A stretch of 64,000 nucleotides of DNA from the NCBI GenBank assembly GCA_044892525.1, contig CM097885.1, forward strand, positions 17,548,001 to 17,612,000, given 5' to 3'. Shown piece after piece: positions 29,238 through 62,273 of the stretch. The stretch comes from Schmidtea polychroa. Taxonomy: Eukaryota. The notes below the pieces were generated by a model. It was not told the origin of the DNA and did no database searches. It worked only from the letters and a program-made list of their open reading frames with translations. The translations under genes and the position numbers were made by a program. Position 1 is the first letter of the stretch, and each line of letters opens with the position of its first letter.

Positions 29238-29626
29238 TGTGAGGTGTTTTCAGCTGAGAGTTAAATATTTCAATGGTTTATCAAAATAATTTTAAATTGT
29301 AAATAATTGACTATTAAAATAACTTTTAAATAATTTTTAAATTGGATTTTTTAAGTTGAAATTTTTAATTAAAAATTAAAATAGCTTTGTAAAAAAGAAG
29401 TTTTATTAATGAAAAATTTTTAAATAAATATGTTTTAAATATTGAAATATTTTGATAAATGGTTTTGAAAATATTTTGATAAATGGTTTTGAAAATATTT
29501 TATTCAACGCTGAAAATTTGTTTAAAATTAAATAATATGTGATATAAAAAATACTTGGAATTATGTCGTTCATTTTTGAACCGGATTTAAAAAATAATTT
29601 AGAAGATATGTTAGCAGCTTCTAATA
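29238..29626 (+). repeat. Gypsy 5' LTR
   Basis: TGTGAGGTGTTTTCAGCTGAGAG...GCAGCTTCTAATA, a direct repeat of 62342-62706 with an extra 24-bp internal tandem duplication. Confidence 0.92.
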
Positions 29627-29637
29627 TGTCGACCACG
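29627..29637 (+). promoter_or_regulatory. Primer-binding site, tRNA-Arg-like
   Basis: TGTCGACCACG follows the LTR directly. It is one mismatch from TGGCGACCACG, the complement of a tRNA-Arg 3' end (..CGTGGTCGCCA). Confidence 0.6.
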
Positions 29638-29640
29638 TCT

Positions 29641-30757
29641 ATGGATTTCTTCATAAGGAAGCTATTCTCAAATGATTATCATAAAGGAGATGATATTGAA
29701 ACATTCATTAAAGAATGCGATAGATATTTTAAAATGGTACAAATGCCTACTTCAAGACAAGAAGTGATGATCGAATTACTGATCGACAAGCAGATCACAG
29801 AGATATATACAAGAGTTTATCAAAATATCAAATGTTATAAGGAAAAATTGCGAAAGGCATTCGTCATAAAAACAAGTTTCGCAGAAGATTTACAATCTGC
29901 TATGTCTTATAGACAGACTAGTGAAGAGCCCGATAAATATTCTACTATCATAGACGAGTTAGTCGATAAAATATTGGGGCATGAGTTAAACAAGGAAAGT
30001 TTAACAGAATATCTGCTGGTACACTGTGCAGCCGAGAAGACTTTGAAACGAGAATTGTGTCTAAGTGCTACCAAAGGAACAACGGAAGTGAAGAAAAAAT
30101 TAAGAAGTTACATGAATCTCGTATGGTTGCAGAAGAGATCTACGCAATTAGAGAAAGAAGACCAGAACAGAATATAACAAGAAATTACAGAGACTCGGTT
30201 ACAAATCAAGCAAAAAATATTGTATCACCAAGATATAATAAAGAGCAGAGAGAGCAACGAGAAGAAAGACCGAAAAGAAATAAGAACGAATGCTGGACAT
30301 GTCACAAGGTAGGACATTTGAATAGAGATTGCATAACGAAGAAGGCAGTTACATGTTTTACATGTGGAAGACAAGGACATGTAAGAAGTCAGTGTCCACA
30401 GATGCAGAGAAAGGTAGTCGAATTTTATGCGTGTGGTACCCCGGGACACGTGAGAAGAGATTGTAAAAAAATAAGGTGTACGAGGTGTATCTTGGGAGGT
30501 CTTAAAGAAGTAGATTGTTACACAAATTTGGACAAAATGAGATATCGAAGAATCAATGAGAATTTTGGAAGACAACAAGAACGATACGAAGCAGAGAATG
30601 GTTATCAAGAAACGAGAAAGGAAACAAGACCGATGCAGACAAGAGATACGTAGCATTCATAGACGAACAAAGTGATGAAAGAATAAAAGATAAATACAGA
30701 GAATACCCAAATATCAAAGCCACGATAGAAGAGGAGATAGTGGGGGCAGTGTATTAA
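29641..30757 (+). pseudogene. gag: Gypsy gag (frameshifted)
   Basis: DDIETFIKECDRYF capsid-like region, a frameshift near 30090, then CX2CX4HX4C knuckles CWTCHKVGHLNRDC and CFTCGRQGHVRSQC plus two degenerate ones. Confidence 0.88.
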
Positions 30758-32042
30758 GCAGTAATGCTGACTCCCAAATTATTAATTATTATAATAAAAG
30801 TAAAATATCATGTATTATAGAAAAAGATGTGAAAGATACAAAGGTAACGGAAGATGAAAATAATGTAATAAGGAAAGTGAACAGATTCATAAAAAAGGAT
30901 TTTGCAGAAAAAGAGAAAATATACAAATACTCACCTTAGATAAATGGAAAAATGATTTTATAAGATATGATAAATGCAAGGCCGACCAAGTGTAACTATT
31001 AGAATACAAGACCAGAAGATGGAATGCTTGCTCGATACAGGATCTACAGTAAATATCATGAGTTGAAGCAAATTTGAGAAACTTAAAGATGTAAAATTAA
31101 CAACAAAGACTGATACATTGAGATGTGCAAATAATAGTGTTTTAGAAACGAAAGGTAAAGCAATATTAGAAATAGTAATAAATGGCAGGAAAAGAAGGGT
31201 AAAATTTACGATAGTACAATATATAAACGTTTTGTAGTTATATTGTTTGTTATTCATCATTTTTTCAAGGTTTTATAAATACGCACATATACACGCATCC
31301 CGATTGTCCCGCCACAATTTTTAACAGTGACTCTATCGGGCTCATCAAATTCCTTACAACATAGACATTCAAATACTAACTACATACCCATTACACGCAC
31401 AATAGTACATCACATAGATACTGTAAATCAATTAAGTATAGACAAACCCTCGGACATAATAACACGTAGCATTCATAGACGAACCAAGTGATGATAGAAT
31501 AAAAGATAAATACAGAGAATACCCAAATAATAACGCCCGTTAGAAGAGGAGATAGTCGGGGCAGTGTATTAAACAGTAATGCTGACTCCCAAATTATTAA
31601 TTATTATAATAAAAGTAAAATATCTTGTATTATAGAAAAAGATGTGAAAGATACAGAGGTAACGGAAGATGAAAATAATGTAAAAAGGAAAGTAAACAGA
31701 TTCATATAAAAGGATTTTGCAGAAAGAGAAAGAGAAAATATACAAATACTCACCTTAGATGAATGGAAAAATGATATTATTAGTTATGATAAAATACAAG
31801 GCCGACCAAGTGTAACTATTAGAATACAAGACCAGAAGATGGAATGCTTGCTCGATACAGGATCTACAGTAAATATCATGAGTTGAAGCAAATTTGAGAA
31901 ACTTAAAGATGTAAAATTAACAACAAAGACTGATACATTGAGATGTGCAAATAATAGTGTTTTAGAAACGAAAGGTAAAGCAATATTAGAAATAGTAATA
32001 AATGGCAGGAAAAGAAGGGTAAAATTTACGATAGTACAATAT
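30648..32042 (+). repeat. Direct duplication of the gag-end/protease segment (30648-31222 and 31464-32042) around a 241-bp unrelated spacer
   Basis: Near-identical ~575-bp copies that share the same TGA in the protease frame. Confidence 0.9.
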
Positions 32043-34483
32043 CTGACTCCAGAGGCAATTGGTGGTATAGAGTTGCAAATGGAACGATTTCAAAGAGCAA
32101 AAAATACTTTAAAGATAAATAATTCGATACTATTGAACATTGTAAAAAAGAATCAAAATGTTTTTATGGCTGATAAATGGGACATTGGCTGCACAAAGCT
32201 GTTGAAGCATAAGATAGAAACTCAAGGAAAACCGATAAATATTGAACCTTGGAGACAACCAGTGAACTTGGAAGGTAAAATAGATGAAGCGAAAAAAACT
32301 TATTGGAAAACAATAATATCAAAAAGTGTAATTCGCCATGGAACACTCCATTAATATGCGTCTCGAAGAAAGAAAAGCAAGATATCATATTGTCTTGATT
32401 TCAGGCAATTAAACCTAGTAACAGAGAGACAGGTGTTCCCTATGCCGAATATAGCAGAGATGTTAGATAAATTGGGTGGACCAAAGTATTTCAGTTCGAT
32501 AGATCTTGGAAATGCATATTATCAAGTAGAACTAGAAGATGAATCAAAGTTAAAAACGGCGTATTCAACCAAATCAGGGCAATACTGTTTTAACAGAATG
32601 CCATTTGGAATAGCAGCGGCACCAGGTATCTTTCAGGAACTGATGGGAAAAGTATTAATAGGTACTAGATATGCAGCAGTATACCTAGACGATATTTTGA
32701 TATTTACAGAAACGATCAATCACCACTAGGAAGTTTTAAATGAAGTGCTGTACAAAATTGAAAAGGCGGGTCTTAGGATAAACCCTGAAAAGTGCCAAAT
32801 CCTTAAAGCGGAAGTCAAAACCTTAGGTCACATAATAAACAAAGATGGAATACAGACGGACCCATCAAAGCTAGACGCGATTAGAAGAGCTATGCGGATT
32901 AAACAACAAAAAATTAATTTGGACTGACGGATGCAACATCGCATTCGAAAATATGAAAAATGTTTAAGTATTCTCACCTATTCTAGGGTTTCCAGATTTC
33001 GAAAGAGAATTTATTCTGGATACTGATGCGAGTTTTGACACGATTGGAGCAGTATTATCACAGAAAGATGACAACGGATGCGAAAAGGTTAAAGCATACG
33101 GTTCTCATGCAATGAGCAATCATGAAAAGGGATATAGCATAACAAGGAAAGAGTTGCTGGCAATCTATTATTTTTGTCAACACTTCAATCATTATTTTTA
33201 TGAAAAACGGTTCATTTTGAGAACGGACCATAAAGCTATCAATTTTATGTTATCCACAAAGAAACCAATAACAACTCAATTTCAGACATGGATTAACTAC
33301 CTCAGAGTCTGGATATTAAAATAGAGTATAGAAAAGGTACTGATCTTGCAAATGCAGATATGTTGTCAAGGAGTACACGTGGAACATGCAAACAATGTTT
33401 ATTGGCACACGAAGACGCGAAAGTGGAAAGAATGTAAACTCGGAGAATGAACACGATGGAAAAAGCTGAAGATAACAAGTGGCAAAAAGATAATAGAGAA
33501 ATAGAACAAATAAAAAAAGAAATAGCACAGGGTTCAAGTTGGAAATTTATACTGGTAGACAACGTGGCGAAAACGATAGAGGGTAAGATATGGATACCTA
33601 GAGAAAAAATACAAGAAATGATAAAGTGTATGCATATTTTGCTATCACACGCAGGAGCAGAAAAGGTGACAAAATATTTAGCGGACAATTACGATATGGG
33701 AGACATAAAAGAATCAGTTACAGAAACAATTGGACAATGCGAGGCATGTCAAAGAACGAAAGTAGTGACAACAAAGATGAAGGAAGAGACAATAAAGCTG
33801 ACAGTAGAGGAGCCATGGGAAAAAATGAACATTGATATATGTGTTCCATTACAGGAAACATTCAGAAAGAAAAGATTTATATTCGCAATGATTGATCAAT
33901 TTAGCAGATAAATCTATCTGACTGCTGTCGCTAAACAGGATGAAGAAACGGTGAAGGAAACAATACTACAAAAATGGATTCTTAGATTTGGAGCACCAAA
34001 GGAAATTCACACAGATAGTGGAAAAGTATTTGAATCTAAGACGATGAACGAGTTTACAAAATCAATGGGAATTACACTATGCTTTTCAAGTCCATATCAC
34101 CATAATACAAATGGTGTGATAGAACATCAATTCAGGACAATAAGAGACTATATAAATGCATCATTAAAAGAAAAAAGTAGAACAGATTGGGCAGAGATCA
34201 TACCAGAGATTGAATTTACCATGAATGCAACATTTCAGAAATCAATTGGACGAAGTCCCGCAGAAGTAATATTTGGAAGAAAAATAGCTCGAGAACAATT
34301 TCATAATAAAGCGACGATTTCACAAAAAGAAGATACAAAGAAACAACGCAGACAAAGAGATCATTCAATATTGGAGATGAGGTTCTGGTAAAAGTAGAAC
34401 CAAAAACGAAAGACAAGGAAATAAACGAAGGGCCATACAGAATAATGCAGAAGATCCACGATCCCCGATATCTGCTACAAGAC
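30975..34483 (+). pseudogene. pol: Gypsy pol (protease, RT, RNase H, integrase), disrupted
   Basis: Motifs CLLDTGSTVN (present twice), SSIDLGNAYYQ, RMPFG, YLDDIL, FILDTDAS, KELLAI, RTDHKA, H..LSH..CEAC, HTDSGKVF, SPYHHNTNGVIE and GPYRI, with many stops and frameshifts. The last codons resume at 62280. Confidence 0.93.
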
Positions 34484-39509
<5,026 letters not shown>

Positions 39510-40037
39510 TGACTTTGAGAATAACTGACAATATATAAAGAAATTAAAAAAATAGAATAAATTAAAAAGTAATAATTAGAATAATATAGAAAAAAAAAAT
39601 TTTAAAAAATAGGGTTTGAAAATCAAAATTGACACATTTATTGAAATATTTAAATAGCATATATAAGTAGTTATTGGAGGCTTTATTTAAAATATTTTCA
39701 AATATTTTATTAGGCTTTTAGAAGCTAATTATAGAAGCTGTAAAAAAATTTAAAAATTTTTAGTTTGTGTCATTTTGAAATTTTAAATGTAAAAATTTTA
39801 AAAGTTTTTAGTAAAACAATTCATTCTATTTACAACCAATGAGAATTAAGAGAAAGGAAATAAAAGAAAGATTGAAGGGTATTTTGGGGAAGAACATTGC
39901 TAAATTCCAGGAGATTGACAAGGACTATCGTATAGTCGAAATTTCTTTCATTAAATACATTATTTGCAGCAAAAGGCTTAAATTATCATTTTATTGTTTT
40001 AAATAATAAATGCTGCTACCAAGCAATCATCATTTTA

Positions 40038-40140
<103 letters not shown>

Positions 40141-40427
40141 AGAGAGAGATGTAGTTGCATGCTGACTGCAAACTACTGTTACAAATTATTTTCTCGTATA
40201 CCAAATCTAAAAATGAAAACATTACAAGTTTTCAAAAATAAAAATTTTTACCAATAATATCCTTTCTATGCTGAAACATTTTCGATAATTTTATATGAAA
40301 ATATAATGTTAAAACATAGAAAGAATTGTGAAAACTATAACGAGTTTTCAATAAAATATATACATTATAAAAGAATACAAATCAATAAAAACATTTTTTT
40401 TTTAAAAAGATATATTAATATATCACA

Positions 40428-43400
40428 TTAGTCCGATAAAATGACATCATCAATGTCAGTAACATCATCATTATTTATAATTCTTGGACTGTCCTGATCA
40501 TCGAAAGATGGGCTTTCGCCACCAAAAAGCGGTCCAATCTCTTCATGAGTAAATACCTGGCCAGCATCAGTTTCCTCAAATCCTAAATAATGTCCATATG
40601 CCAGACTGGTATTAGGCCCCACCCATAGTCTCTTGTCATCGTTGTTCGACAAGGCTATCTTCCTATTCTTGAAAGTAAAGAGCTGATGGTTTCTAGTACT
40701 TATTCTCGTTTGTGGCACCGTATATACTACGCTGTTGTTGTAGCAGTCTAAATAAGACTGGTGCCCTATCTCAGTATTACCAAGCTGAACTCCCTTAGCC
40801 CTAAGTGTTGCTGTATCTCCTAACAAACTATAACACTTAGGGCGCAAGAACACCCACTCCTTATAACCAAGCCCTTTACTTTCATCCTTAAATTTCCCTA
40901 TCACAGAATCCAAACTCTTTGAATACAAAGGATGAGCAGGATCATAATTACTAGTGTCTAGAAGATTATCACGAATCATTGCCGGCAAAAGAGTGTCAAG
41001 CTTACAGTGCTTTATCTCTAAGAAAAAGGAGTCGGTGTCGCCGGCAACGATATTTATATCACAGTTAAATTCATTTCTATATTTTGCCAATTCTATATAC
41101 TGTAACTGGTACATCCTCAGTTTAGACAGGTCTAGCACAGATTGGCCAATGTAGCTAGGCCTGTCTAAACATATAGAATCCTTATTTAGATGAGCTGCAA
41201 TCAGATCATCATCAATTCTGATAGATTTTCTGAATGTAGGTTTTGAGGCATATACAATCATCTTTTCAGCTGAATTGCATAGCCTCAAATTCATCCGTTT
41301 TTTAAGGTTTTCCACGGATTTCCCATACAGACTATTATTAAATAATTTATATAAATCTCTATGCAGCTCGCATGTAGAATTTGAGAGCAAATTAGTATTA
41401 GTTGATATGTAATCTTTAAAAATAGGTGCATGCTTAAATTTAATTGCCCTATGTACATTTTTAATTAAAGCCCCCAATTCAATATACAATTTGAGAAGTC
41501 GTCAATGAAGAACATGGTTCTTCTTCGGCCAATGCGTGAGCATCAGCTTCTCAACTTTTGAATCTGGCGGGCACATTTTTTCCGGAGCAATCGGAAAATC
41601 ATTCAAAAAATCATGCAAGCAATCAGGGATATCGATATCAACCTCCATAGTATAGCCATATGGAAGGTTATCAATATCAGCATTCATACATTCATACAAG
41701 ACAGAATCAAGGTCATCATACACCCATTCAAAATCACCATACGGAAGATTTTGGCTTAAGGCCCAACCATACAAGTTGTTTATATCTATATACAAGAGTT
41801 CTGTGTCTTCAGAACTTACAACATAATGTTTGTTAACAAATGTTAACCCACCCCGTATCCCTCCTTCATAGAAATTAAACATTTCCATGTCCTGTAAAAG
41901 TTCAATGGGTTCCTTTAATGTCATAAGCGCTGAGGCCCATGACATACCGGGAATACCATAAAAATTTAGAGGCTCAAGACCATTGTATGCAATGGCCTTT
42001 TCACGGAATTGTGTAAAATAATCTGCGAGGAGAAACACATCAAGTTTAAGGTATGTTAACATATAGTCTAACATATTGTTGCAATTTTGTTGAGTCCAAA
42101 TAACTTGGGCTAATTCATATTCATCATTAGACACAGAATCCCAAATAGGAGGCAATTCAAGAGTTGATTCCAGGACCTCAAGAGATGTAGCGAAGTCATA
42201 AGGGAAGATACCTTTTGCTCGAACAATTGCGCCATCAAAAACAGAAGAAGTTAAAGGCAGATCGGAAAGAGTCTTAACAGCTTTTGCAAGTGATGAATTA
42301 ACAAACTGCATGCTGTCAATAAAACGAACAGGCAGTTTGTTAATGTACGCGATGAGAGAGATAAATTTTTCCGTAGTGGTTGGAATAATATTCAATTCCC
42401 AAGAAGGAAAATTATTCAAACCATACTTCAAAATATGATGGAGGTCATACCCCCTAAAATTGTGAAATACAACAGGTAACTGTCTCTGAATTCTGCGAGA
42501 CACATTACATTTCCTACAGGCAGCACCAAGATACTTACCTGTGAAGTGACAATGGTCCCTAACTTTATCTCTAATAAATTTTTTACAAAGATAGCAGGTC
42601 CTGGAATTATAAAAGGCACGATCTTCAGCGAAAGACAAGGTTTGCATAGGCTTATTACCGTTAATTTCGTAATATGGTAGGACAATTGTGACAGCAATTT
42701 CCTCCACCTTATGCAAGAAAGACAACACGCAATCCTCACCAACAAACTCATAATAAAATCTAGTTTTGTTATAATTGTTAATTAGTAACATGCCTGCTGT
42801 TATTGGCATGTGTTTTTGATGGTGGGTGATATCCTCAGGTAAAATCGACTCAAAATCGGCATATATCACGAATGGCGGGGTTACTGTTTTTGCATAGTTT
42901 GAGAATATTAAATTTTTCTCTTTCGGTAATGTATATAAAGTAGAACCTATTTGATTCTTACGGCATAGGTCTACATGGATATCATATGCGCTCCTATGTC
43001 TGAAGCCATTAAGGCAATGTGGGCACCATTTGACGCGAATCCAAAGGTGACAGGAGCTATTTGGGTGTGAATTCATAAGTTTTTGAAGATCAAAAACTGC
43101 GGTGTAATGAAAATTATCACCGTCTTCTAATAATAATAAATATATGGGTTTACCACCTATAACCTTAGATCGGTGCATAATATCTAACTGGGGATGATGA
43201 GGGATATAATCTTCATTGTTGATAGGTTTCGCTGGTTTATTTCTATATATTAAAACGTTAATAGCTAAGTTCAGTTCACGGTTTTTGCGTTCGAATTTAG
43301 GTATGTTACTTAATCTCATCGGGCAATCACTAATGGGGTCAAAATTAATTTCATCCAAATAATTTTGGTAAGCACTAACTCGATGCTTATTTCTGCGTAT

Positions 43401-44426
43401 AACATCACGCTTTAAGAGGGCTAGAACACTATATATAAAACACATATCATCATCTGTGTTCTGGATATTGACAATTGCGTATTTAGACTTTAACGCTATC
43501 GGGGTGGGGATATAACTATGTCCAGCTAACCTATTCATAATCTTATACTTATTTATTATGAAGTCAATTTCTTTTATTTTAACAACCCGCCATCCGCTAC
43601 CTAAATATGTGAATTTTTCTATCTTATTATTTAATTTAGTGATGCCATTGATTAAAAAGTTTTCTGAAAAAACTTCGGCGTTATTGGAGAAAAAATTATC
43701 TCGGATTTCGCCATCTTTCTCAAATTGTATGAGAACCGTGAACTGAATTTTAACGGGCCCCATACCGTTCATTTCTGATACTAGTTTTTGAATAATTTTT
43801 GGTGTTATTGCTATCTGTACTAAGGCGTCTTTCTCCACGTCAAACCTTAGATTTTTTCTAGCCCCCTTAAAATCTATTTCTATTTCTGGCTCGTCGTCTA
43901 GATCGACTGAACCGCCTATTTGATTATTTAGTATATTATTTAGGATATTATTTAGGTTATTATCTATTTCATCACCACCATCATTAACTTTAACAATTTT
44001 AGATGGAACACAAGACCCAGGACTAACAGCAGGCCGTTTTTTATTTTTAATTAGATTATTATTCACATTTTTAATTAGATTATTATTCACATTTTTAATT
44101 ATATGTTCTGCGCTAATCGCATCATTATTTACAGTTTTAATTATATGTTCTGCGCTAATCGCATCATTATTTACAGTTTTATTTTTATATACAGTTTTAT
44201 TTACAGTTTTGATATGTTCTGTATTATTTAACTTATTAAAAAGTTTCTTTTTATTTAAAGTAAACTGATTTAGATGTTTACTATGTATATTATAAAAATC
44301 CTTATATTTTATAGGTTGGGAAGTCTGGCATAGTGGACATAAATAGTATTTGAGTCCATAGAATTTATGCCCATAGTATTTTTTCATGTTTTTGTGACAT
44401 ACTTTAGTATGCCCAGTCGAAGACAT
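40428..44426 (-). pseudogene. polB: Protein-primed family B DNA polymerase (one in-frame TGA at 41502-41504)
   Basis: ExoI YADFES, endonuclease-VII-like CYLC..RDHCHFTGKYLGAACRKCN, ExoII FHNFRGYD, KGIFPY, ExoIII YLKLDV, motif A YIDINNLYG, motif B KLFNNSLYGK and motif C GDTDS. The two track ORFs are in the same frame. Confidence 0.96.
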
Positions 44427-44642
44427 GCAATACCGAGGATATAATTGGCCTATTAATAAATTTATTTAATAATTATCTAAATATTGTTGTAATATAGAAT
44501 GTTTAATATCTTTATTAACAATTGTTAGTAGTTATTCAGTTTTTTTATTAGACAATAATTATAAAACTGAATAACTATTAACAATTATTAATAAAGGAAA
44601 TATTATTAGCAGTTAGATCAAAGACATGGAAATTTAAAGGTA

Positions 44643-44719
<77 letters not shown>

Positions 44720-44772
44720 AGAGATATGTAGTTGCATGCTGACTGCAAACTACTGGTAGAAATTATGGGTCA

Positions 44773-44898
<126 letters not shown>

Positions 44899-44951
44899 AG
44901 AGAGATGTAGTTGCATGCTGACTGCAAACTACTGGTAAAAATTATGGGTCA

Positions 44952-45023
<72 letters not shown>

Positions 45024-45096
45024 TCTAAACTTAAATTATAACTTTCTCAAGAATATTTCAAAATTTTCTTCTACATTTTCATCGTTTTAAATTTTC

Positions 45097-45305
45097 CTCA
45101 TCATTTCATATAAATTTTCATCATCATTTCATATAAATTTTCATCATCTGTTCATATAAATTTTCATCATCTGTTCATATAAATTTTCATCATCTGTTCA
45201 TATAAATTTTCTTCATATAAATTTTTCAAATAAAATTGTTCAGGATTTTTCAAATAAATTTTCATCATCATTTTCTAATAAATTTTCATCATCTGTTCAT
45301 ATAAA
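45097..45305. repeat. ~23-bp tandem repeat
   Basis: TTCATATAAATTTTCATCATCTG units, bracketed by a short inverted repeat (AAACTTAAATTATAACTTTCT ~45026 / AGAAAGTTATAATTTAAGTTT ~45353). Confidence 0.8.
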
Positions 45306-45411
45306 TTTAAATCGTCAATTACAAATTTACAGCATTTTTTAAAATAATTTAAAGAAAGTTATAATTTAAGTTTATAAATAATTTATAAATAATTATGATT
45401 AATAAAAAATA

Positions 45412-46095
45412 TTATTCATGAAAAAAAAAACTAACATTTAGACTCTGAATCAGAGTCTGTTTCGTCCTCAGTGAGGATATTTCCAAAAACCTTCCAATAA
45501 AAGTAGAGGCAAAATCTGCTTCCTCCCCAATAGCAGTGGGGGCATCAATTAGCATTGTTTCATCAATGCGTGCAGCATAAATTGGAGCATCATCCTCAGA
45601 GAGGGCATACGGAATAGGGGCATCATTCAAAACATTTGAAGCTTCTAAATCATTTTTAAAAATTACATATAAAAATAATAAAAACTTACGAGTATTTTCT
45701 ATCATCGCATGTTCGATGCAAAACTCATTGTCGATATGATTAGGAATCATTTGACTATGTCCTAAAAAAAGGTTTTTAATTTAATACAATAATAATAAAA
45801 AATTACTTGATAAATCATCATCATCCTCACTAATGACTATTGTATCGTCATTGTCGCTAATAATTATAGGATCTTCATCATCGCTCACCATTATAACGTC
45901 TAAATAATAATAATAATAATATTAATAAATAAAAATAAAATTACCATATGTACAATTTAAATTAAATCCATCTTCATTTTCAGTAACTTCGTACCACAAA
46001 TCATCTATAAAATATAAAAATAAATAAAATAATAATATTTTGCCATTGCTGCCAGCCATCATACATCTTAGAATATTATTTTCTTGTCCTTCCAT
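45412..46095 (-). CDS. Maverick accessory acidic protein with three tandem SIM-like motifs; 5 exons
   Basis: Exons 46095-46044, 46004-45945, 45899-45807, 45761-45690 and 45644-45412. Introns are 39 nt (GC-AG), then 45, 45 and 45 nt (GT-AG), all phase 1. Introns 2 and 3 contain in-frame stops. Exon 3 encodes DVIMVSDDEDPIIISDNDDTIVISEDDDD. The 3' end is uncertain. Confidence 0.72.
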
Positions 46096-46524
46096 TTTGT
46101 AAAAATTTTAAATTAATTGTGACGAATTTGGAAATTGCAAATGTTTATAAAGAGATTTAAATTTTCCTGTCCCAGCCAATAAGATTTCGGTATACACACA
46201 TAGAAACTTAAATATTTTACTCTGTTAGCCAATCACATTGCATCTACACGTGCCTTGTTAATCACACTGTTTCCATGTGACTGTCTTTATTAGTCAGTTC
46301 TTTGTTAACATGCACTGTGCATGCACGGAGCATGTGATGGCTTTATGATAAGTTAATTAAAAATAATTAATAAGTTAATAATAACAATAAAATTAAAGTC
46401 TTTCTTATTAAATAATAATAAAAGTCTTTCTTATTAAATAATAATAAAAGTCTTTCTTATTAAATAATAATAATAAAAGTCTTTCTTATTAAATAACAAC
46501 AACAAAGCATACACTAAACATTTA

Positions 46525-46857
46525 TTAAACATGAAACTTTTTGTACAACAACCACGCCAAACAGTGTTGACCACATGTTTAAGTCAAGGGATTTTGAAAC
46601 ATAGTTTTATTATACACAATAGGTTTCCCCATTGTTTGTAGTTTTGATATCAACAAAGCCGGGTAATAAAAACCCATAGGATCGAACACGATTATATTAC
46701 CAGGTTTCATATATATAGCTATCCAATGTTCTCCACCAAGATGAGACGATTGAGTATTGACGATTATTGCTTGATTATTGCTCAAATATGGAATTTTATC
46801 AAGAGGAAAAACTCCAACAAATTCATTTCCCAATATCTGTTTTCCAATTCTCAGTAC
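46525..46857 (-). pseudogene. Adenain-like cysteine protease (in-frame TAA at 46579-46581)
   Basis: FVGVFPLD, IVNT...GEHWIA, FDPMG, then FQNPLT*TCGQHCLAWL. The catalytic His, Asp, Gln and Cys are all present. The start codon is unresolved. Confidence 0.92.
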
Positions 46858-46928
46858 CTGAACTTAAATAAATCCAGAGTATAAAAAAGAACTTACTCCA
46901 TGACAACTTTTTGTGTTTCAATATACAT

Positions 46929-48149
46929 TTATACCAACACAGTTCTATTTGCAGTAATTTGAACTTCATTTTCAAATACTCCATATATTATAACATGTAC
47001 TGGTTCAGTAATAGCTTTTGCAAACTTTATATCCAGTCGTAAATTTCCATTTTGAGGTAATTGACTTTGATTTAAATCAAAATCAGGGGCTAAAACAAAT
47101 GTAAAAAATGGGTATTTGCTTTTAAAATCCTCTAGAGTTATTCCGCAATTCAAATTTTTATCTAAATAACCCAGATTTCTAACAATACTCTGCATATATG
47201 TCGCACAGTAATTGTCATTCTCGAAATCTTGAATATATGTTTCTCTATAATCAGTATTTTTCGACAAAGTCAATGATGTAACACCAAAGTTTTTGAAAAT
47301 TGAGCTGGACGCAGTATATGATCCATTATATTGTGCTTCACTTTGAAATGTTATCAGAATAAAATTAGGCATTCTTCTGTCACCAAATATTTGTTCTTTA
47401 TAGAATGATGAAGCACCTTTAGCAATAGCAAATTGTACAATTTCCTTTGTTTTTAATGGATAAATTGCATGTTTTGAATTAAGACCCAATTGATGACCTG
47501 CTAATACTGAGGGGTCTACTCGAACTCTTCTCACCAATAATTTTGCATCAACTAATTGACATATTGTTGTAGTAGTTGCACTAATAAGAGATAATGCAGA
47601 ATCAGACCTTTTCAGTCTAATATGTACATTAACTCCCGGTAGTAAATATTTCGGTTGATCCATAAAATCAAGTTGTAATGATGAGCACATGGTGAAAACC
47701 TTTGAGCCTTTTACCCAATTTTTTCTTTCATCATCACTGCCATAGCCCATAGGAGTAAGACATGAATTTTTAGTATCGGAATTGTAATTTAAAATAGTTT
47801 CTATTAATGCCTTGTGAATGAATGTATTATTTCCGCCCTCAATCTTGATATTATTAAATCCCAACACTGCATCTTTAAAAAGAGTATGAAACAGGAAATT
47901 GTTCGGTATTACATCTGCATTGGCATCCAAAACTTTTCTATCTTTATCTACAACCTTAATCTGAACAGTCAATAAAGTATCGTTCAAATCTAAATATTCG
48001 GTTTGTGAACCATTAATATAAAACTCGATATCATTTCTACTATCGGTAATTGAATTCATAGGAAAAACTTCCTCAAATGCCCCAAATTCTATTACAGCCT
48101 GGGGCGACGGTCTATCAAATATACATAATTCAGATTTACCACAAATCAT
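46929..48149 (-). CDS. Major capsid protein (double jelly-roll, PY/hexon-like)
   Basis: Intact 406-aa ORF with Polinton MCP motifs KSEL.IF..P, IEFYINGS..EYLDL..TLL, QPKYLLPGV...IRLKR and GNLRLDIKFA. Confidence 0.92.
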   Translation of the reverse strand: MICGKSELCIFDRPSPQAVIEFGAFEEVFPMNSITDSRNDIEFYINGSQTEYLDLNDTLLTVQIKVVDKDRKVLDANADVIPNNFLFHTLFKDAVLGFNNIKIEGGNNTFIHKALIETILNYNSDTKNSCLTPMGYGSDDERKNWVKGSKVFTMCSSLQLDFMDQPKYLLPGVNVHIRLKRSDSALSLISATTTTICQLVDAKLLVRRVRVDPSVLAGHQLGLNSKHAIYPLKTKEIVQFAIAKGASSFYKEQIFGDRRMPNFILITFQSEAQYNGSYTASSSIFKNFGVTSLTLSKNTDYRETYIQDFENDNYCATYMQSIVRNLGYLDKNLNCGITLEDFKSKYPFFTFVLAPDFDLNQSQLPQNGNLRLDIKFAKAITEPVHVIIYGVFENEVQITANRTVLV

Positions 48150-49408
48150 TTTGCAAATATAGTTCCATGTCCTTTCATTCGTTTGTTTATACGTGATATT
48201 CCATGTCTTTTACGTTTTGGAGCTGGAGCTGGAGCTGGAGGTTTTTGAAACATACCTGCAACCCCAGGTAAAACTTTCCCTAATTCAGCTAAAGCATTTG
48301 TTTTTAGAGATGGTAATATTTTCTGTTCATTCATAATAACATCTTTTGCAGTTTTCATACCAAAACTACCAATACGTTTAAGAATAGGCAGGGCAAAACA
48401 ACCAATAGTTCTCAACCATCCTGATCCGTACTGTTTACCTTTTGGAAAGTTTATAAGTTTTCCACTATCATCACGAATATTTATTTCTATATTGTTTATA
48501 CATGAACTTGCTATTGGTAAATACATGGGATTATCGATATTTATATTGACAACTTCATCATGTTCATATTTTCCAATCCATACCGATTTCAAAAGAGGAA
48601 CACTGGAATCACCAACAATTATGGGTTCGATAATGTTAGTATATATGAACATTTGTTGATGATGTTCTAGTATTCTTGGTTTGCGTATACCAGTCGATTT
48701 TTCTCGATATTTTTGCCTATCTAATCCAAGTGAATTTGCCAAATTTTTATCAAATGTAACTTCGCAAATATCCTCATTCAAACTGAAGGTAAACATCAAA
48801 TCTTTCACAATTTCCAAATTTTTAAATATGTGTGAACAATTGAACTTTAAATATTTAAGTAAATCATCAAGTTTATCAAAATATAATTCATCAGCAAAGG
48901 TAAATGATTCTTCAACTTCATCATTATACGACACAGATATTTTGATTTCTTCTTTCATTACACTGTTTGCTTCAAATAGATTAAAACGTAATAAATACTC
49001 GGTCTCTGTAACAATATTTTTCAACTTATTGCAACCCATTCGTTTGGCATCTTCAATAGTTTCGAATGTTATTGTAAATGGTTTAAAATCTCAACTGAAA
49101 TTTAATCCATCCTTGTAAAACATATAGCAATGCGAATCTAATATTTGGTTCGGAATATGATATGTTTTATCATAATTACTAATAAAAAAGATACCGCTAC
49201 ATGTTTTCACAATATTCCTTCTGAAATCAATCGTACAATGACTATAAAATGGGAATGTGTTGTACACGAATGTAAAATCTTGCAGTGCAACTTCCCAGTC
49301 ACCATTTAAAGAAATCGGATTCTGGAGATTGACCATAAATTTACTGGCTTGATTGTCTGGATGAATTAATGGGCAACTATTGCTCGGTAAAATAGTATAA
49401 AAATTCAC
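48146..49408 (-). pseudogene. Minor capsid (penton) protein, in-frame TGA at 49091-49093, running in frame into a basic core-protein-like tail
   Basis: N-terminal FYTILPSNS...PDN..SKF...L..PISLNGDWEVAL and C-terminal FIYTNIIEP.IVGD..VPLL...PMYLP....INNIEINIRDDSG, followed directly by QYGSGWLRTIG..ALPILKRIG. The two track ORFs are in the same frame. Confidence 0.85.
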
Positions 49409-50037
49409 TTTACTAGGTCTTTTGCTGATATCCATGACGGGTTTTGATAACCATGCCATTTGACATAGTATTGTTTATCCTTACCGACCTTTTTAGTTTT
49501 CAATATTTTTTGAATTCTAAATACTTTTGGGGGAGTAATGACTTGTAATTCCTGCTCATAAAATTTCCCTTGTACAATATTATTGTCATTGTCTTTGATG
49601 ACATACATTACAGGATTCTGTTTAGTATTTATTTTTGAAATTACAAAGACTTCATCACTCCAATTTGTATCAAAATTTTTAATAAATGGTGATGCACTAA
49701 TTTTACTAATTCTAACATGGTCACCGACTTTATATTTAGGTTTTGCAATTTATACAGATTTCTTAGAAGTCAATGATGTTTTTGATGTAATATCAACAGG
49801 TCTCAATCCATTCAGTCCTCGATGTGATGAATGATTATAACTTGTTATTATTTTCGGTAAAGCATTTACCCATTTTTTATTACCTTGATGCACGAACAAT
49901 TTCTTTAATCTATCTCTCAATGTTCGATTAAATCTTTCAACATGGGCAGCTTTGTATTGAGAATGTACCGAGTAGTGATTTATTTTCAGTTTATCGAGGA
50001 TTTGCTTAACTTTGCTATTGTAGAATTCTTTACCTAA

Positions 50038-50117
<80 letters not shown>

Positions 50118-50505
50118 CTAAATCTGTTTGCAAGTTATTAGGATGTCCATCTTTAAATAAAATATTAATTGCCTTGGAAATTTCTTCTGCAGATTTTGCC
50201 TTGACTGGTATTGCTCGTGCAAACCTGCTGTATACATTAATACATGTTAAAATATATTTATTTCCATTGTTAATTTTCGAATAAGGTATCATCTCCATCA
50301 AATCCATTTGCCATAAATTGTCAATATTAAATGTTTTATATGCTCTTGTTGGAAATCTTTTCCGCATTGGTTTGTTCAAACTGTACGCAAGCTGATCTGA
50401 TAACCACTTCTGGGTTTCTTTTTTCGAATTCGGAACTCTTTACTTTAATTTTGCCACTCCACCGAAACCGGCTTCGTCTTCTGGGTTCGTCCAAATCTTC
50501 TCCAT
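49405..50505 (-). pseudogene. Retroviral-like (rve) integrase with C-terminal chromodomain; two in-frame TAA and one 84-nt intron
   Basis: One frame from ATG 50505: MEKIWTNPEDEAGFGGVAKLK*..WLSDQLAYSLNKP, WQMDL, LQTDLG[intron 50117-50034]KEFYN, VERFNRTL, YNHSSH, SV*IAKPKYKVGDHVRI and YYVKWHGY..PSWI. Stops are at 50440-50442 and 49750-49752. Confidence 0.93.
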
Positions 50506-50566
50506 TACAACAAGAAGATTTAAAATTAAATTTAATGTCGGGAAATGAAGGATTAGCACCCATTGT

Positions 50567-51094
50567 TTATGACTGTGTAACTCCACCTAATAATGATAAT
50601 GCCAGAGGTATCAATGCACCAATAAATCCACCTTGTTGTTTATATATAATTTTCCTCATTTGCTTACGATTTTTATTATTTACTAAAGATAACAATGGTT
50701 TCCTATGTTTGCTCAATAAATGCCTTTTTGATTTACTGATTTGATTTTTTCCTTTGACTACTTTAAGTATAATATTGAGTAAATCATCGACAACGAAATT
50801 TGGGAATGATTGCAATATATTCATTCTTTTCATACTCGGAGCCTTTAACAATGCATTAAAAAATGGAAAACTTCGATAATTTTTAACTACTTTTTTACTG
50901 GTTTTACTGGTTTTACGGGTTTTACGTTTAGGTTTAGGATTTTTCGAAATAAGATTCATTGCAGAGAAATTTTCAGTTACAAGTTTTTTAGATGGTGTAT
51001 AACTAGTTGTTGGTGGAACTTTTGGAACTTTAATACTCTTTCTAATACTTTTTCTTAATTTCCTAATATTTTTCACCCTTGCTTTTAGAAACAT
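50567..51094 (-). CDS. Basic core-like protein with QQGG|F motif and amphipathic C-terminus
   Basis: Very K/R-rich 175 aa ending KQQGGFIGALIPLALSLLGG. This type of ORF typically lies between ATPase and integrase in Polintons. Confidence 0.78.
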   Translation of the reverse strand: MFLKARVKNIRKLRKSIRKSIKVPKVPPTTSYTPSKKLVTENFSAMNLISKNPKPKRKTRKTSKTSKKVVKNYRSFPFFNALLKAPSMKRMNILQSFPNFVVDDLLNIILKVVKGKNQISKSKRHLLSKHRKPLLSLVNNKNRKQMRKIIYKQQGGFIGALIPLALSLLGGVTQS

Positions 51095-51112
51095 TATTAT
51101 TCATAGAGGTTT

Positions 51113-51739
51113 TCAACTTTGTTTATAAACCATGGCACCTTTTGGGTTGAAAATATCGGTTTTTACTCGTAAATCACCGGGACATTGTTGCGTGAAATCA
51201 AGAAATATATATCCATGAGGTATTTTTGTAGCATCTTGAAATGCACTGATAAGAAAATTACGATTGTTAGGGTATGCTTGACGTGCAAGAAAATCAATCA
51301 CTGTTGCATCTCTAGGATTCTTGAAAATAACTAAATATTGTACATTTAAATTACGTGTTCGATGTGCACCACCTTGATGAAATAGATTTTGTGTTATGAA
51401 AATAACTGTTACACCGACATGTCTGCTGATCTTTGTAAATAAATTATTAAAATCTTTTTCTTTATTAGCTTCTTGATACAGATCATCGATAATAATGACA
51501 TCACCTTTCTTTAATCGGCTGGACCAGTTTTTATCGAATCCCTTTACTATTTTCATGTTTTTTAATTTACAGAAACTTGATTGAGTTAATCCATGTTCTT
51601 CATCAGCACCCCTATGCCAATAAATCCTGTTGAATTTTGATTTGAATAAATTTGATTTTAGTAATTTACAAACAAATAATGTTTTTCCACTACCACTCGG
51701 ACCAACGATTTGGTATACTGCATCATTTCTTAATTCCAT
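51113..51739 (-). CDS. A32/FtsK-HerA-family DNA packaging ATPase
   Basis: Walker A GPSGSGKT, Walker B IIIDD, SRH, IFITQNLF and RTRNLNVQYLVIFKNPRD. Confidence 0.95.
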   Translation of the reverse strand: MELRNDAVYQIVGPSGSGKTLFVCKLLKSNLFKSKFNRIYWHRGADEEHGLTQSSFCKLKNMKIVKGFDKNWSSRLKKGDVIIIDDLYQEANKEKDFNNLFTKISRHVGVTVIFITQNLFHQGGAHRTRNLNVQYLVIFKNPRDATVIDFLARQAYPNNRNFLISAFQDATKIPHGYIFLDFTQQCPGDLRVKTDIFNPKGAMVYKQS

Positions 51740-51804
51740 TTCAAAAATTTTTTAAGTGTGTATTTGTTTATATTCAATGATTTAATGAACTCGTGCTCAA
51801 TTTG

Positions 51805-51812
51805 TATATAAA
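51805..51812 (+). promoter_or_regulatory. TATA box upstream of the TBP-like gene
   Basis: TATATAAA ~30 bp before ATG 51839, in the 100-bp divergent gap shared with the ATPase. The AT-rich background weakens this. Confidence 0.45.
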
Positions 51813-51838
51813 GACTAATTTTCATAAATGATTTAATA

Positions 51839-52276
51839 ATGTTAGCAAATATAAATTATCGAGGAAATTTTGATGTATCGAATATGAGGTTCCCACCCGG
51901 GAAACCCCAGCAAATTATCGATAGAAGCGGGAAATATCCGATAATATTTTTCAAGACTGGTAAATGTAGAATCATGGGATGTAAGAAACCCTTGGATATT
52001 AATAAATTACAATATCGAATAAATAATATTAAAATTCAATCAATTACCGTTACTATGGATATGGGACATAGTATCAATCTATATAACATGTCGAAAAAAT
52101 GTGATTGTATGTTTGAACCGGAATTGTTTCCGGCACTAAGACTATTAAAATATAACCCTATATGTGTCAACGTGTTTGCTAGTGGAAAGGTTGTCATGTT
52201 GGGGTTGAGAAATTTGGAGTATAGAAAATTTGTTGACAATGTTCGAAATGAGATAATTTCATTGGTCGATTTCTAA
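51839..52276 (+). CDS. TATA-binding-protein-like protein (145 aa)
   Basis: Two TBP repeats: IIFFKTGKCRIMGCK and IKIQSITVTMDMGHSINL...FEPELFPALRL...VNVFASGKVVMLG. Compare TBP ALIFSSGKMVCTGAK and FKIQNMV...YEPELFPGLIYR...LIFVSGKVVLTG. Confidence 0.88.
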   Translation: MLANINYRGNFDVSNMRFPPGKPQQIIDRSGKYPIIFFKTGKCRIMGCKKPLDINKLQYRINNIKIQSITVTMDMGHSINLYNMSKKCDCMFEPELFPALRLLKYNPICVNVFASGKVVMLGLRNLEYRKFVDNVRNEIISLVDF

Positions 52277-52350
52277 TTGGTTAATTTCTAATTGGTTATT
52301 GATTGATTTAAACAAACGGTTTTTTGTTTAGGATTCATTTATTCAACAAA

Positions 52351-52762
52351 ATGTACAAAATTCCAAGCGCAGCAAATATAATGAAAGATATTGACGACTA
52401 CGGTAAATTTTATATTTATTATTTTCATTTTTATATTTGTTATTTTAGAAAAATATTTAGAAGTGATGTTGAATCGGATAAAATATTATTACCCGCAAAT
52501 TGCAGAAATTATCAAGGATCGCGAACCTGAGATCATTCCAGATCTGATATTCTATGAGACTCAAATTCGAATCATGGAGGTATTCCATCAATTCCTATGG
52601 GATCTGAAGATCAATAGGACAATGAAACAAATGGAGACGGAATACCAATGCATCATCGGATGCTCATGTTGTGCCGATCGATATCGGCGATATGTTGAAT
52701 GGGAGTTAGTGAAAACTCTGAGAAGGTTTCACTACTCCCGGATTGTAGATATAGGATATTAA
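52351..52762 (+). CDS. Maverick hypothetical protein (121 aa, 2 exons, C..GCSCC cluster)
   Basis: Exons 52351-52402 and 52449-52762 are joined in frame across a 46-nt GT-AG intron. AATAAA follows the stop. Confidence 0.72.
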
Positions 52763-52838
52763 TAAATGTATTTTTTCTTTCTATCGTGTTTTTATATTTG
52801 AAATAGTAATAATATAAATAGTAATAGTAATAATATAA

Positions 52839-52873
<35 letters not shown>

Positions 52874-53001
52874 TATAATAATAATAATAATAATAATATA
52901 AATAATAATAATAATAATATAAATAATAATATGACACATAAATAATAATAAAACATTAATAATAATATGTCACATCAATAATATGAACATAAATGCAGCA
53001 T

Positions 53002-53080
53002 TAATGCAAATGACATGCAAATTTAAACAAAGACATGCTATAATCTGATTGGTTGATAGGCATGAGTCAAAGGTATAAAA
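53002..53080 (+). promoter_or_regulatory. Pol II-like promoter: two ATGCAAAT, AACAAAG, inverted CCAAT, TGAGTCA, TATAAAA
   Basis: The motifs occur in this order just upstream of ATG 53115. The ATGCAAATGACATGCAAATTTAA(A)CAAAGA block is repeated at ~53596-53624 before the next gene. Confidence 0.6.
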
Positions 53081-53114
53081 ACCCTGTAACATTTCAATTT
53101 AATCATTATTCACT

Positions 53115-53535
53115 ATGACCAAGAAAATTTCATGCACCGAAAAACCTATATAAATGGTACAACCAGTTCAAATGTTCCACAACTACAAAATGTATTTTTT
53201 GAAAGAAGAAATCAATATGAAATTGGTTGCACCGATCAAGCTAATTCCAACTAAATTTCAATTCTTATCCGGCACGCTTTCAATGATTGATGTCAAAACT
53301 ATTGATGATGTTTTTAAACGGTTAGATTCGAATCTATCATGTAATCAACATGCATGGTTCAACAATAGATATGCAAGATTTTATGATCTTTTATGATTTT
53401 TTTGATGAAATCAGTTTCAAAGAAAATGAAAATTGGTATATAACAATTGCAATCCAGGGATATAAAGTTGATAATAATGATGTATATTCTCCTATTTGGA
53501 AAATTATGTCTGCTAGACTTTCACAAATATTTTAA
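53115..53535 (+). pseudogene. Maverick hypothetical protein (in-frame TAA at 53151-53153; 10-bp duplication frameshift at ~53378-53397)
   Basis: Removing one TTTTATGATC/T copy joins track ORFs 53154-53396 and 53350-53535 (..YARFYDFFDEISFKENENWYITIAIQGYK..). Confidence 0.68.
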
Positions 53536-53661
53536 TGTTATATTTAATAAATGTTTTAGTCATATTTGTTTTTCTCTTTATTAATTGCAACATAAATGCA
53601 AATGACATGCAAATTTAACAAAGAAAATCTATAAACAAACTTAAAATATAGCTTTAAAGTG

Positions 53662-54038
53662 ATGAAAATGACTGCAGAAAAAGGTTAACATGATTAATTA
53701 ATTACCGAATTATTTATTATTTAGAATTATTAATCAACTTTTTGTTGGAAAAGTTAGCAGAAATAGCTGGTGTGAAAATTGAGGACATATTATCTGTTAC
53801 AAATGCATTAAATATCGGCTGGGTAGTTGAGAGTCAAGATTCAGGATTTGATGATCAGGAAGAAGAAACTCAAGAAACTGATACTCAAGAAATTGATGAG
53901 GAAATATATGAACCTATAGATGAACCTATAGAGGAACCTAAAGATGAACCTAAAGATAATATTACGAATGATTGTATTGATCATGTCGTTGAAAATATAA
54001 TGAAATGTGGAGATGACGACTGCGAATGTGTTAATTAA
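53662..54038 (+). CDS. Maverick acidic hypothetical protein (2 exons)
   Basis: Exon 53662-53683, a 41-nt GT-AG intron, then exon 53725-54038 give MKMTAEKELLINFLLEKLAEIAG... with an E/D-rich middle and Cys-rich end. Confidence 0.7.
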
Positions 54039-54107
54039 TAAATCTTAGTGTTTGTAAATTTATTTAAAATTTTATTTAAAAATCAAACAAAATAACTATA
54101 TTAATTT

Positions 54108-54619
54108 TTATTTAAAAAATCGCGATAAAGCATACAAAATAGCAACACCTGTTGCAAGTTTTATATAGTTTTTAAATTTCATTTTCTGTTCATCTATTTC
54201 CTTCGCATTTCTGGCGAGTTGATTCAGAGTTGATCCGCCATTGGCTTCAATCCATGGTTGAAACTTTGACTTGATTATCTAGAAAATATATATTAATAAA
54301 ATATAGATTATAAAAGTATTACTTCTTGAGACCACTGATAATAATGTTCAGAGTCCCATAAACTTCTTTCGATTATGATCTTCATATAAGCGAACCCTAC
54401 TAGTATTCGGGTCCACTTCATCTCATCATCGCATAGACAGTTAAAAATCCTATGAAAATAGAATTTTTTCGTTTCGAGGCAATCGCAATTGAGCACATCC
54501 TCATAATTAATGTGATTTCCTTCTATAATCTTTTCGGTCCGATCGACCAGGAAACTGAGGCTTTCCATAATCTTCTTGTTAATAAGTTCGCTTAAAAGAT
54601 TTTCCATAAAATGAGACAT
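54108..54619 (-). CDS. Bcl-2-family-like protein (155 aa, 2 exons, tail-anchored)
   Basis: Exons 54619-54323 and 54278-54108 with a 44-nt GT-AG intron. BH1-like FHRIFNCLCDDEMKWTRILVGFAY, BH2-like FQPWIEANGG and tail LATGVAILYALSRFFK. Confidence 0.82.
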
Positions 54620-54724
54620 TTCTACAATAATTTAAAATATGATGTTTTATTTATACTAATACCGTATGATTTTGATTGGTTGATAGACTATAAATGTAAA
54701 AGAAAGGTTTTGATTTGATACACC

Positions 54725-55225
54725 ATGAAAACTATATTCATATTGCTAATTATTATAACGAGTGTGTGCTCACACAATACAACAATAACAGTGAAGTCTT
54801 TTAATAAATCAATATGTGTTTGTCCGAATACCGCCAAGTTGATGGATATTTTATATATCCTCGATAAACCAAATTGGTCAAAGCATCCAGGAAAAAGAAT
54901 ATCTCAAAGATTGGAGAATTTAGAAAACAGTTATGAACTATCATTTGCATATATACAAAATATAAAAATTAAATTGATTGATCATATTGAAGTTTTCAAT
55001 AACTCTATTGTTGAAAATAAGAAGAATATGAAAATTATTGATAAGAAGCATGATTATTTGTTAAAAAAGATTGAATTATTATTAAGAGAAATTAAAACAA
55101 TCAAAGGATCAATAGAATATCTGAAAATCAATTCAACGTTACCAATTTCAAACAATAATGCTGCGAATAGTAGTACATCAATATTAGGTTTACCTTTGTT
55201 AGTTTTACATTATTTTTTTGTTTAA
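54725..55225 (+). CDS. Predicted secreted/surface coiled-coil glycoprotein with GPI-like C-terminus
   Basis: Signal-like MKTIFILLIIITSVCS, several NxS/T sites, a heptad-like central region, then a small-residue stretch and a hydrophobic end (NSSTSILGLPLLVLHYFFV). Confidence 0.7.
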   Translation: MKTIFILLIIITSVCSHNTTITVKSFNKSICVCPNTAKLMDILYILDKPNWSKHPGKRISQRLENLENSYELSFAYIQNIKIKLIDHIEVFNNSIVENKKNMKIIDKKHDYLLKKIELLLREIKTIKGSIEYLKINSTLPISNNNAANSSTSILGLPLLVLHYFFV

Positions 55226-55366
55226 ATAAATGTATGTTTTGTTGATTTGTTTAATAATACCCTTGTGAGTTGTTGAGCGTGAGCAATACCCTTTTGAGCA
55301 TTACCCATTGGGGGAGAAAATATTTTGTCGGATAAACTCGGGGCAGTACCCTTGCGAGCAATACCC

Positions 55367-62273
<6,907 letters not shown>

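Follow-up and report, generated by a model that had tools for sequence, protein, structure and literature searches.

The core of a SUMO-interacting motif (SIM) is described in the accessible part of one source as about three Val, Ile or Leu residues in a run of four, with acidic or phosphoserine flanks that are often CK2 sites; the motif is said there to be loose, and SIM and LIR sites to be similar (PMC12751080). The sequence IVISDS, reported as the one proven SIM of ICP0, is common to Daxx and HCMV IE2 (PMC3174244), and in RNF4 it is the spacing of the SIMs that is reported to decide the binding of neighbouring SUMOs, of which the closer pair SIM3-SIM4 is incapable (PMC3901395). Lysine deserts are reported to protect Slx5, San1 and other proteins of the ubiquitin system, and to occur in some viral proteins too (PMC10169902, PMC13696103). 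As far as the accessible sections of two further reports go, both piRNA-guided silencing in flies (PMC8490990) and SMC5/6 silencing of plasmid or extrachromosomal DNA in human cells (PMC12656486) need SUMO and SIM-bearing effectors. A short multi-SIM peptide would offer one testable answer to how Mavericks persist at high copy against host silencing. The genes of intact vertebrate Mavericks are reported to be intronless (PMC8097293), and introns in Maverick-like elements are known in the form of dinoflagellate introners, according to the available part of that report (PMC11957031). The locus considered here is predicted to hold a small five-exon accessory gene, referred to below as the SIM gene, which would lie between the protease and pPolB of a Maverick and carry a set of SIM-like units in its middle exon, exon 3.

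The DNA analysed (the window) is a stretch of 64,000 nt from Schmidtea polychroa (assembly GCA_044892525.1, contig CM097885.1, positions 17,548,001-17,612,000 of the forward strand), AT-rich and animal-type in composition, with numerous ATT runs. It contains two nested elements, a Maverick having inserted into a separate outer fold-back element. The outer element (34484-62273, about 10.2 kb without its insert) has AGTAGAGGG..CCCTCTACT ends and a CAAGAC target duplication; it is itself Maverick-ended, and is not gene-less, as it holds an IAP-type RING gene. The inner element, the Maverick/Polinton that hosts the SIM gene (38380-55979, 17,600 bp), has AGTAGG..CCTACT ends and terminal inverted repeats (TIRs) of 412 bp at 92%. 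It sits in an ATT run of the left arm of the outer element, the right (mirror) arm of which provides the empty insertion site, with an unbroken ATT run and both flanks. TTATTA is duplicated on both sides of the inner element, which is weak evidence alone as the duplication lies in the ATT run. Pfam matches within the inner Maverick are to DNA_pol_B_2, rve plus chromo, Pox_A32 and Peptidase_C5, that to rve falling below the curated cut-off. The copy is decayed: a stop at 41502-41504 divides pPolB (40428-44465, minus strand) into two frames, the protease frame has 94 residues and an ATT run lies in the integrase. The adenain-type protease (46579-46863, minus strand; Peptidase_C5, E 2.5e-5) is the upstream neighbour of the SIM gene. 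Beyond it lies the likely major capsid gene (46929-48209, minus strand), which has no informative Pfam match and is assigned on size, position and 50-56% identity to capsid-type frames conserved in the expected place in five related elements that hold the capsid-protease block. The capsid block is intronless.

Several other genes of the inner element and its surroundings may be mentioned. A TBP-like gene (51812-52276, plus strand; Pfam TBP, E 1.4e-15) has counterparts in two related loci, L010 and L015; it runs opposite to the ATPase in the window and in the same direction as the ATPase in both of these. At 52351-52762 and at about 53666-54038 (both plus strand) lie two accessory genes that a single short intron apparently interrupts, of 46 nt in the first gene and about 41 nt in the second; the latter gene is 31% acidic. 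The acidic ORFs at 53727-54035 of the window and in L010 resemble each other at their ends, yet they fail to align (E 0.11), and we rejected homology between them. A two-exon gene at 54107-54616 (minus strand), with a 44-nt intron at 54322-54279, encodes a C-terminal hydrophobic anchor; weak matches (Pfam E 0.019-0.075; PDB Bcl-2-A1 E 0.2; none in the second exon) hint that its product could be a Bcl-2 homologue. Reading by eye also showed a broken Gypsy-type retroelement (29548-34391) beside the left end and, at 20653-27261, exons that probably encode a cyclic-nucleotide-binding protein of the host.

Predicted exon 3 (45807-45899, minus strand; 93 nt) is bounded by a T-rich ..TTTAG acceptor and a GTAATT donor and is in phase 1 on both sides. 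One of the three minus-strand frames is open across it, and this frame reads as three units of nine residues (27 nt), each made up of a SIM-like core, a Ser and then an acidic run, with the cores V-I-M-V in unit 1, P-I-I-I in unit 2 and T-I-V-I in unit 3. This is the peptide that the original prediction had reported at 45899-45807, and its statement that the exon is absent from the ORF track is also borne out: the open stretch ends at TAA codons in the intron on either side and so is missing from a list of ORFs of 100 aa. The further claim, that the units follow the phospho-SIM consensus, holds in part: all three have the order hydrophobic, Ser, acidic, but the strict four-residue core is found only in unit 1, while units 2 and 3, with three hydrophobic residues as in IVISDS, lie outside the strict hh-x-h form. 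Each of the three cores has at least three Val/Ile/Leu-type residues in four, and each is followed immediately by Ser with Asp or Glu at +1 and +3, which is a CK2-type Ser-x-x-acidic site.

The pattern [VI]x[VI]S[DE]x[DE], which was drawn from the exon 3 units after they had been seen and is therefore favourable to them, has three matches when all six frames of the window (64 kb) are searched, each of them inside exon 3. Local order-3 Markov shuffles gave 0.57 matches per window, with an in-frame pair within 60 nt in 0 of 200 shuffles. DNA identity among the three units is 63-70%, and their differences are distributed 9:2:15 among codon positions 1, 2 and 3. All changes in codons 2-9 preserve residue class, an outcome with a simulated frequency of about 0.004 per pair when six changes are placed at random and the residue classes are those that we chose. 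To judge from this pattern, the three units are an old triplication that has diverged in the manner of coding sequence, and the evidence from the DNA itself supports both the coding status of exon 3 and the SIM-like nature of its units.

The gene model around exon 3 starts at an ATG at 46095 and comprises five exons on the minus strand, joined across four phase-1 introns. Exon 1 (46044-46095) has two candidate donors, both in phase 1, namely a GT at 46064 (giving a 60-nt intron) and a GC at 46043 (39-nt intron); the 21 nt between them are 52% GC and thus exon-like. Exon 2 (45945-46004, 60 nt) encodes acidic plus aromatic residues, exon 4 (45690-45761) has 72 nt, and exon 5 (45412-45644) encodes three repeats that each begin with D-A-P. 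Introns 2 (45900-45944), 3 (45762-45806) and 4 (45645-45689) are predicted as GT-AG introns of 45 nt each, with a GC content of 4%, 11% and 11%, respectively, compared to 26-39% in the exons (33% in exon 3), and the first two contain an in-frame stop. In the unspliced frame both stops and four of the five Lys codons fall inside predicted introns, the lengths of which are all multiples of three. An intron scan run without guidance recovers introns 2 and 3 and misses introns 1 and 4; it also returns similar GT-AG candidates of 44-46 nt in two other Maverick genes and in the RING gene. The region upstream of the ATG (46096-46250, minus strand) is a likely promoter, in which ATTGG (reverse CCAAT) occurs twice and a TATAAA stands some 50 nt before the ATG. 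Accessory genes of Mavericks that are split by introns in this way are missed by ORF-based annotation.

Variation among copies was taken from contigs of public runs, with 12 of 20 indel rows listed and the repeat at 45895-46039 set aside. Among the rows listed, all five non-triplet indels within the SIM gene sit in introns 3 and 4, as deletions of 1 and 2 nt at 45764 and 1-nt indels at 45658, 45662 and 45670, although two of these five rows probably cancel within one contig. Variants in exon 5 keep the frame (3 nt at 45560, and a net 45 nt at 45561-45636), the number of D-A-P units differing between copies, and a 7-nt insertion at the start of the gene in another copy leaves the ATG in place. 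The introns are homopolymer-rich and prone to slippage, so that indels would favour them in any case. The 40 substitution rows listed, of 295, include none in exon 3. None of 15 listed splice joints (of 99) matches a predicted intron; these come from contigs of four among 15 runs, three of the four only guessed to be RNA, and skip 45895-46039, so that they speak neither for nor against splicing. In one run (X9), protease and capsid had about 30-50 times the summed contig depth of the SIM gene, a measure that cannot rank genes, and in a second run under another species label (X4) there was coverage at 45637-45834, though too thin to be relied on. It is very probable that exon 3 is included in the transcript of the predicted gene; since the exon is symmetric (phase 1-1), skipping it would preserve the frame. 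Across the last 25 or so codons of exon 5 an acidic Ser-rich tail can be read in another frame, so that the gene in this copy may have suffered a break near 45.5 kb. The interval from the SIM gene to pPolB holds, at 45060-45340 of the window, an array of 23-24-nt units, in which two 24-nt units give an acidic peptide in one frame and the 23-nt units shift the frame.

The predicted product has about 162 residues (about 18 kDa), with 36 Asp/Glu compared to 6 Lys/Arg (22% acidic), two Cys, and no RING, basic patch or DNA-binding region. The frame of exons 4 and 5 has no Pfam match, exon 2 contains a W-x-x-V word, and the overall composition suggests an unfolded protein. There is no Lys in the first 146 residues. 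In 15 other frames from both elements, by comparison, Lys makes up 8.8% and the longest stretch without it is 83. Lys-free runs in eight acidic ORFs of related loci extend to only 17-67 residues; runs above 100 are found among the related loci too, in 3 of 81 ORFs, as well as in some relatives of pPolB (up to 242).

An alignment of pPolB retrieved 50 related loci from metagenomes, and the single pPolB query gave three distant loci. Protein searches with the SIM gene found no homologue among 223 and 9 candidates, using a read-through query in which intron residues and X lower the sensitivity, and tblastn with the predicted product gave no match among the listed loci (those above 3.4 kb of the 53). 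The slot after the protease is filled in three of the five elements with a capsid-protease block by a gene for a Cys-rich protein of 130-155 aa, in one by an apparently spliced gene on the opposite strand, and in one it is empty. As no homologue was found and relatives fill the slot otherwise, the SIM gene would be lineage-specific or fast-evolving. The strict SIM motif has six matches in the 231 kb of the 53 loci, never paired, one of them in an acidic ORF of L010. When viral contigs were scanned with a degenerate pattern for SIM arrays of nine-residue period, 13 loci emerged; on inspection these were short frames, giant-virus simple repeats and, once, a chance match in a long ORF, with no credible SIM array in any Maverick-like gene. 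Neither the capsid queries nor the pPolB alignment found matches in viral contigs.

Further features of the related elements were noted in passing. The Cys-rich protein is conserved in the slot of L004, L010 (4144-4608) and L029, and its L010 copy has no Pfam match. L010 also has an acidic ORF of 142 aa (11781-12209, minus strand) with one V-I-Y-I-S-D-S-D motif, directly upstream of its TBP-like gene, and a gene for a ubiquitin-conjugating enzyme (E2; 13480-13977, plus strand; Pfam UQ_con, E 1.7e-12). pPolB has the same direction as the capsid-protease block in the window, and is tail-to-tail with it in all five elements (L004, L010, L015, L024 and L029). An apparent multi-exon gene with short AT-rich introns in L024 (about 890-2200, plus strand), which has an N-terminal Cys/His motif similar to the N-terminus of pPolB, raises the possibility that spliced accessory genes are general in this lineage.

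The original prediction also saw what looked like one more SIM in the tail of pPolB. The SIM-like motif is present, as V-I-L-S-D at the end of a tail extension of 53 residues, but it is not a conserved feature: three increasingly loose patterns, all of which detect the query, match 0, 1 and 3 of 113 relatives (7 of 120 proteins were dropped, having no end landmark), and most relatives have no extension at all (median tail 9).

Taken together, these features lead us to read the product, tentatively and with a little less than even confidence, as a RING-less and almost lysine-free multi-SIM decoy for SUMO that shields the element from SUMO-dependent silencing. That the protein really binds SUMO is fairly probable, and a role against silencing, should it bind SUMO, is at least equally so; antagonism of SUMO-dependent silencing may reasonably be inferred for the gene. 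In the proposed sequence of events, the host would splice the 45-nt introns and keep exon 3, and the resulting acidic, unfolded protein of about 18 kDa would reach the nucleus without an import signal. CK2 would then phosphorylate the Ser following each core, and the cores would bind the grooves of SUMO. With a nine-residue period, this binding would probably involve unit 1 jointly with unit 3, or bring in several SUMOylated proteins simultaneously, rather than engage adjacent SUMOs within a single chain. The SIMs of RNF4 are 10-11 residues apart, and it is because the period here is tighter that the use of units 1 and 3, or the cross-linking of SUMOylated proteins, appears more likely than RNF4-like binding of poly-SUMO. 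At the nuclear DNA of the element, the decoy could compete with SIM-bearing silencing factors of the host or tether factors of the element, and the absence of lysines would guard it there against attachment of SUMO and ubiquitin. For a protein with SIMs and without a catalytic domain, basic patch or lysines, competitor or tether is the simplest role. The reported SUMO dependence of silencing in flies and human cells, and the acidic single-motif ORF and E2 gene of L010, are in line with a decoy. Points against a decoy are the looseness of the SIM motif, the existence of acidic low-complexity look-alikes, the restriction of the strict core to unit 1, the failure to find a homologue in the searches above, a slot that is otherwise filled or empty in five of five related elements, the Lys-free runs above 100 residues in other ORFs, the inability of the closer RNF4 pair to bind adjacent SUMOs, and the decay of the copy with a possible break at the end of the gene. 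A wider version, in which this spliced, lysine-free triple-SIM protein is the poly-SUMO trap of the Maverick, blocking the SUMO step common to piRNA and SMC5/6 silencing, and is one of a set of swappable SUMO- or ubiquitin-directed accessory genes in a TBP-carrying lineage, is on balance unlikely.

The decoy reading has to be weighed first against one in which the SIMs serve the element positively: like those of HCMV IE2, they would hold an activator or a replication factor at nuclear sites rich in SUMO, and the protein would be an acidic co-activator acting with the TBP-like factor of the element. Activation domains mix acidic and aromatic residues, as do exons 2 and 5 of the SIM gene, and a TBP-like protein is indeed encoded by the element. 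The acidic ORF of L010 with its one SIM-like motif immediately precedes the TBP-like gene there. The IVISDS class of SIM includes that of an activator, IE2, as reported in the accessible part of the source (PMC3174244). However, the product has no DNA-binding or basic region, with only 6 Lys/Arg in 162 residues, and a tether requires neither triplication nor a lysine desert. Moreover exon 3 uses only Val and Ile, which are poor activating residues. We regard a co-activator as rather improbable.

It is also conceivable that the gene is real and its motifs incidental, the product being an acidic, repeat-built protein (a DNA mimic, capsid cement or Atg8-binding protein) that does not bind SUMO in vivo. 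The whole protein is made of short repeats, with a number of D-A-P units that varies between copies; the gene follows the capsid-protease block on the same strand; the motifs that define SIM and LIR sites resemble each other and are both permissive; and exon 2 contains a W-x-x-V word. Incidental motifs would nevertheless not be expected to retain Val/Ile, Ser and acidic residues in all three cores despite 30-37% divergence in DNA, nor an acidic residue at +3 of every Ser, and the SIM gene has promoter-like signals of its own and four introns, whereas the capsid block has none. We consider this explanation improbable, and more so than a co-activator.

According to the original prediction, the SIM protein might, speculatively, work in trans with the RING protein of the element as a split SUMO-targeted ubiquitin ligase (STUbL). 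On such a reading it would supply the SUMO-reading half of the ligase, completed by a ligase of the host or by the RING protein encoded at 58024-57373. The anatomy is suggestive, in that clustered SIMs and a lysine desert recall Slx5, the RING gene is 11 kb away on a Maverick-ended element and L010 encodes an E2 enzyme. The RING gene (57373-58024, minus strand; one predicted 46-nt intron), however, lies outside the right end of the inner Maverick, at the centre of the outer element, which has its own ends and target duplication and into an ATT run of which the Maverick was inserted; both elements share Maverick-type ends and a nucleus, which would allow action in trans, but beyond the insertion nothing ties the two genes together. 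Nesting of Maverick-ended elements can in this way make unrelated genes resemble the toolkit of one element. The 5' part of the RING gene is duplicated in inverted orientation at 55980-56480. Its closest relatives of solved structure are the RINGs of cIAP1/2 and XIAP (E about 1e-9 to 1e-7), so that it is of IAP type, and it belongs to a small family with a helical N-terminal part and a RING, which we picked as 13 of 150 listed matches. A SIM-like word was found in none of these 13; among all 150 listed matches, a single such word occurs in 3 (strict) or 8 (loose), and an array of the strict motif in none. Known split STUbLs pair via two RINGs. The SIM gene product has several SIMs (three predicted units) and neither a RING in its chain nor RING-RING pairing, it does not pass as a STUbL because it has no RING, and no ligase-binding box could be recognised in it by eye. 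The attribution of the RING gene to the same element was thus mistaken, and a ligase half, with whichever partner, appears less probable again than incidental motifs. The last explanation, that exon 3 is unused, being either skipped or part of a non-coding repeat or dead remnant, would fit a symmetric phase-1 exon among introns that are all multiples of three, in a decayed element with no matching splice joint among 15 listed of 99, but is very improbable given the strong donor and acceptor, the recovery of its flanking introns by the unguided scan, the codon-position pattern with class-conserving changes and a GC content of 33% between flanks of 4% and 11%.

If its product is a decoy, the SIM gene would connect an integrated virus-like element with the SUMO-based means by which herpes- and adenoviruses counter restriction. 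In the open literature we found no SIM protein of a Maverick and no transposon-borne antagonist of SUMO silencing in animals, although the supplementary maps of the adintovirus report (PMC8502044) may annotate such genes; 'SUMO' and 'splic' have no occurrences in the main text of that report, and SUMO is absent from the accessible main text of a preprint on gene transfer among animal viruses (10.1101/2024.03.25.586562). The closest counterpart by position is the Oncoid of adintoviruses (PMC8502044), which is likewise a small linear-motif protein encoded upstream of PolB with CK2 acceptor sites; about 950 bp separate the end of the SIM gene from the pPolB frame, which follows it on its own strand, so that its placement relative to PolB is that of an Oncoid. 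It differs in having five exons and a SIM array, and in lacking LxCxE, a CR1 word and paired CxxC, as judged by eye in both models of exon 1. RNF4 and yeast Slx5-Slx8, as described in the parts of the reports available (PMC3901395, PMC13696103), share with the product clustered SIMs in a probably unfolded region and, for Slx5, a lysine-free stretch, whereas the product has no RING, no VDLT-type (SIMb) cores and a tighter spacing.

The phospho-SIMs of HSV-1 ICP0 (SLS-4), Daxx and HCMV IE2, as far as the available part of the source describes them (PMC3174244), are the nearest match to the motif itself, with three hydrophobic residues, Ser and an acidic stretch to which units 2 and 3 come close, and with a viral context. 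In contrast to ICP0 and IE2, the SIM gene carries three copies at a nine-residue period within one exon and encodes a predicted SUMO-binding protein of 162 aa with neither the RING of ICP0 nor the DNA-binding domain of IE2. The host element agrees with Mavericks/Polintons as described in the accessible part of the literature (PMC8097293) in its TIRs, 6-bp target duplication, pPolB, integrase, ATPase and adenain protease and in its length of 17.6 kb; conserved frames that are likely capsid genes occupy the expected place. It differs from the vertebrate elements in that its accessory genes appear to hold introns of 39-60 nt. Viral SIM proteins are thus already known, and what is new here, and real at the level of the predicted coding sequence, is a RING-less, spliced and lysine-free triple-SIM gene in a Maverick.
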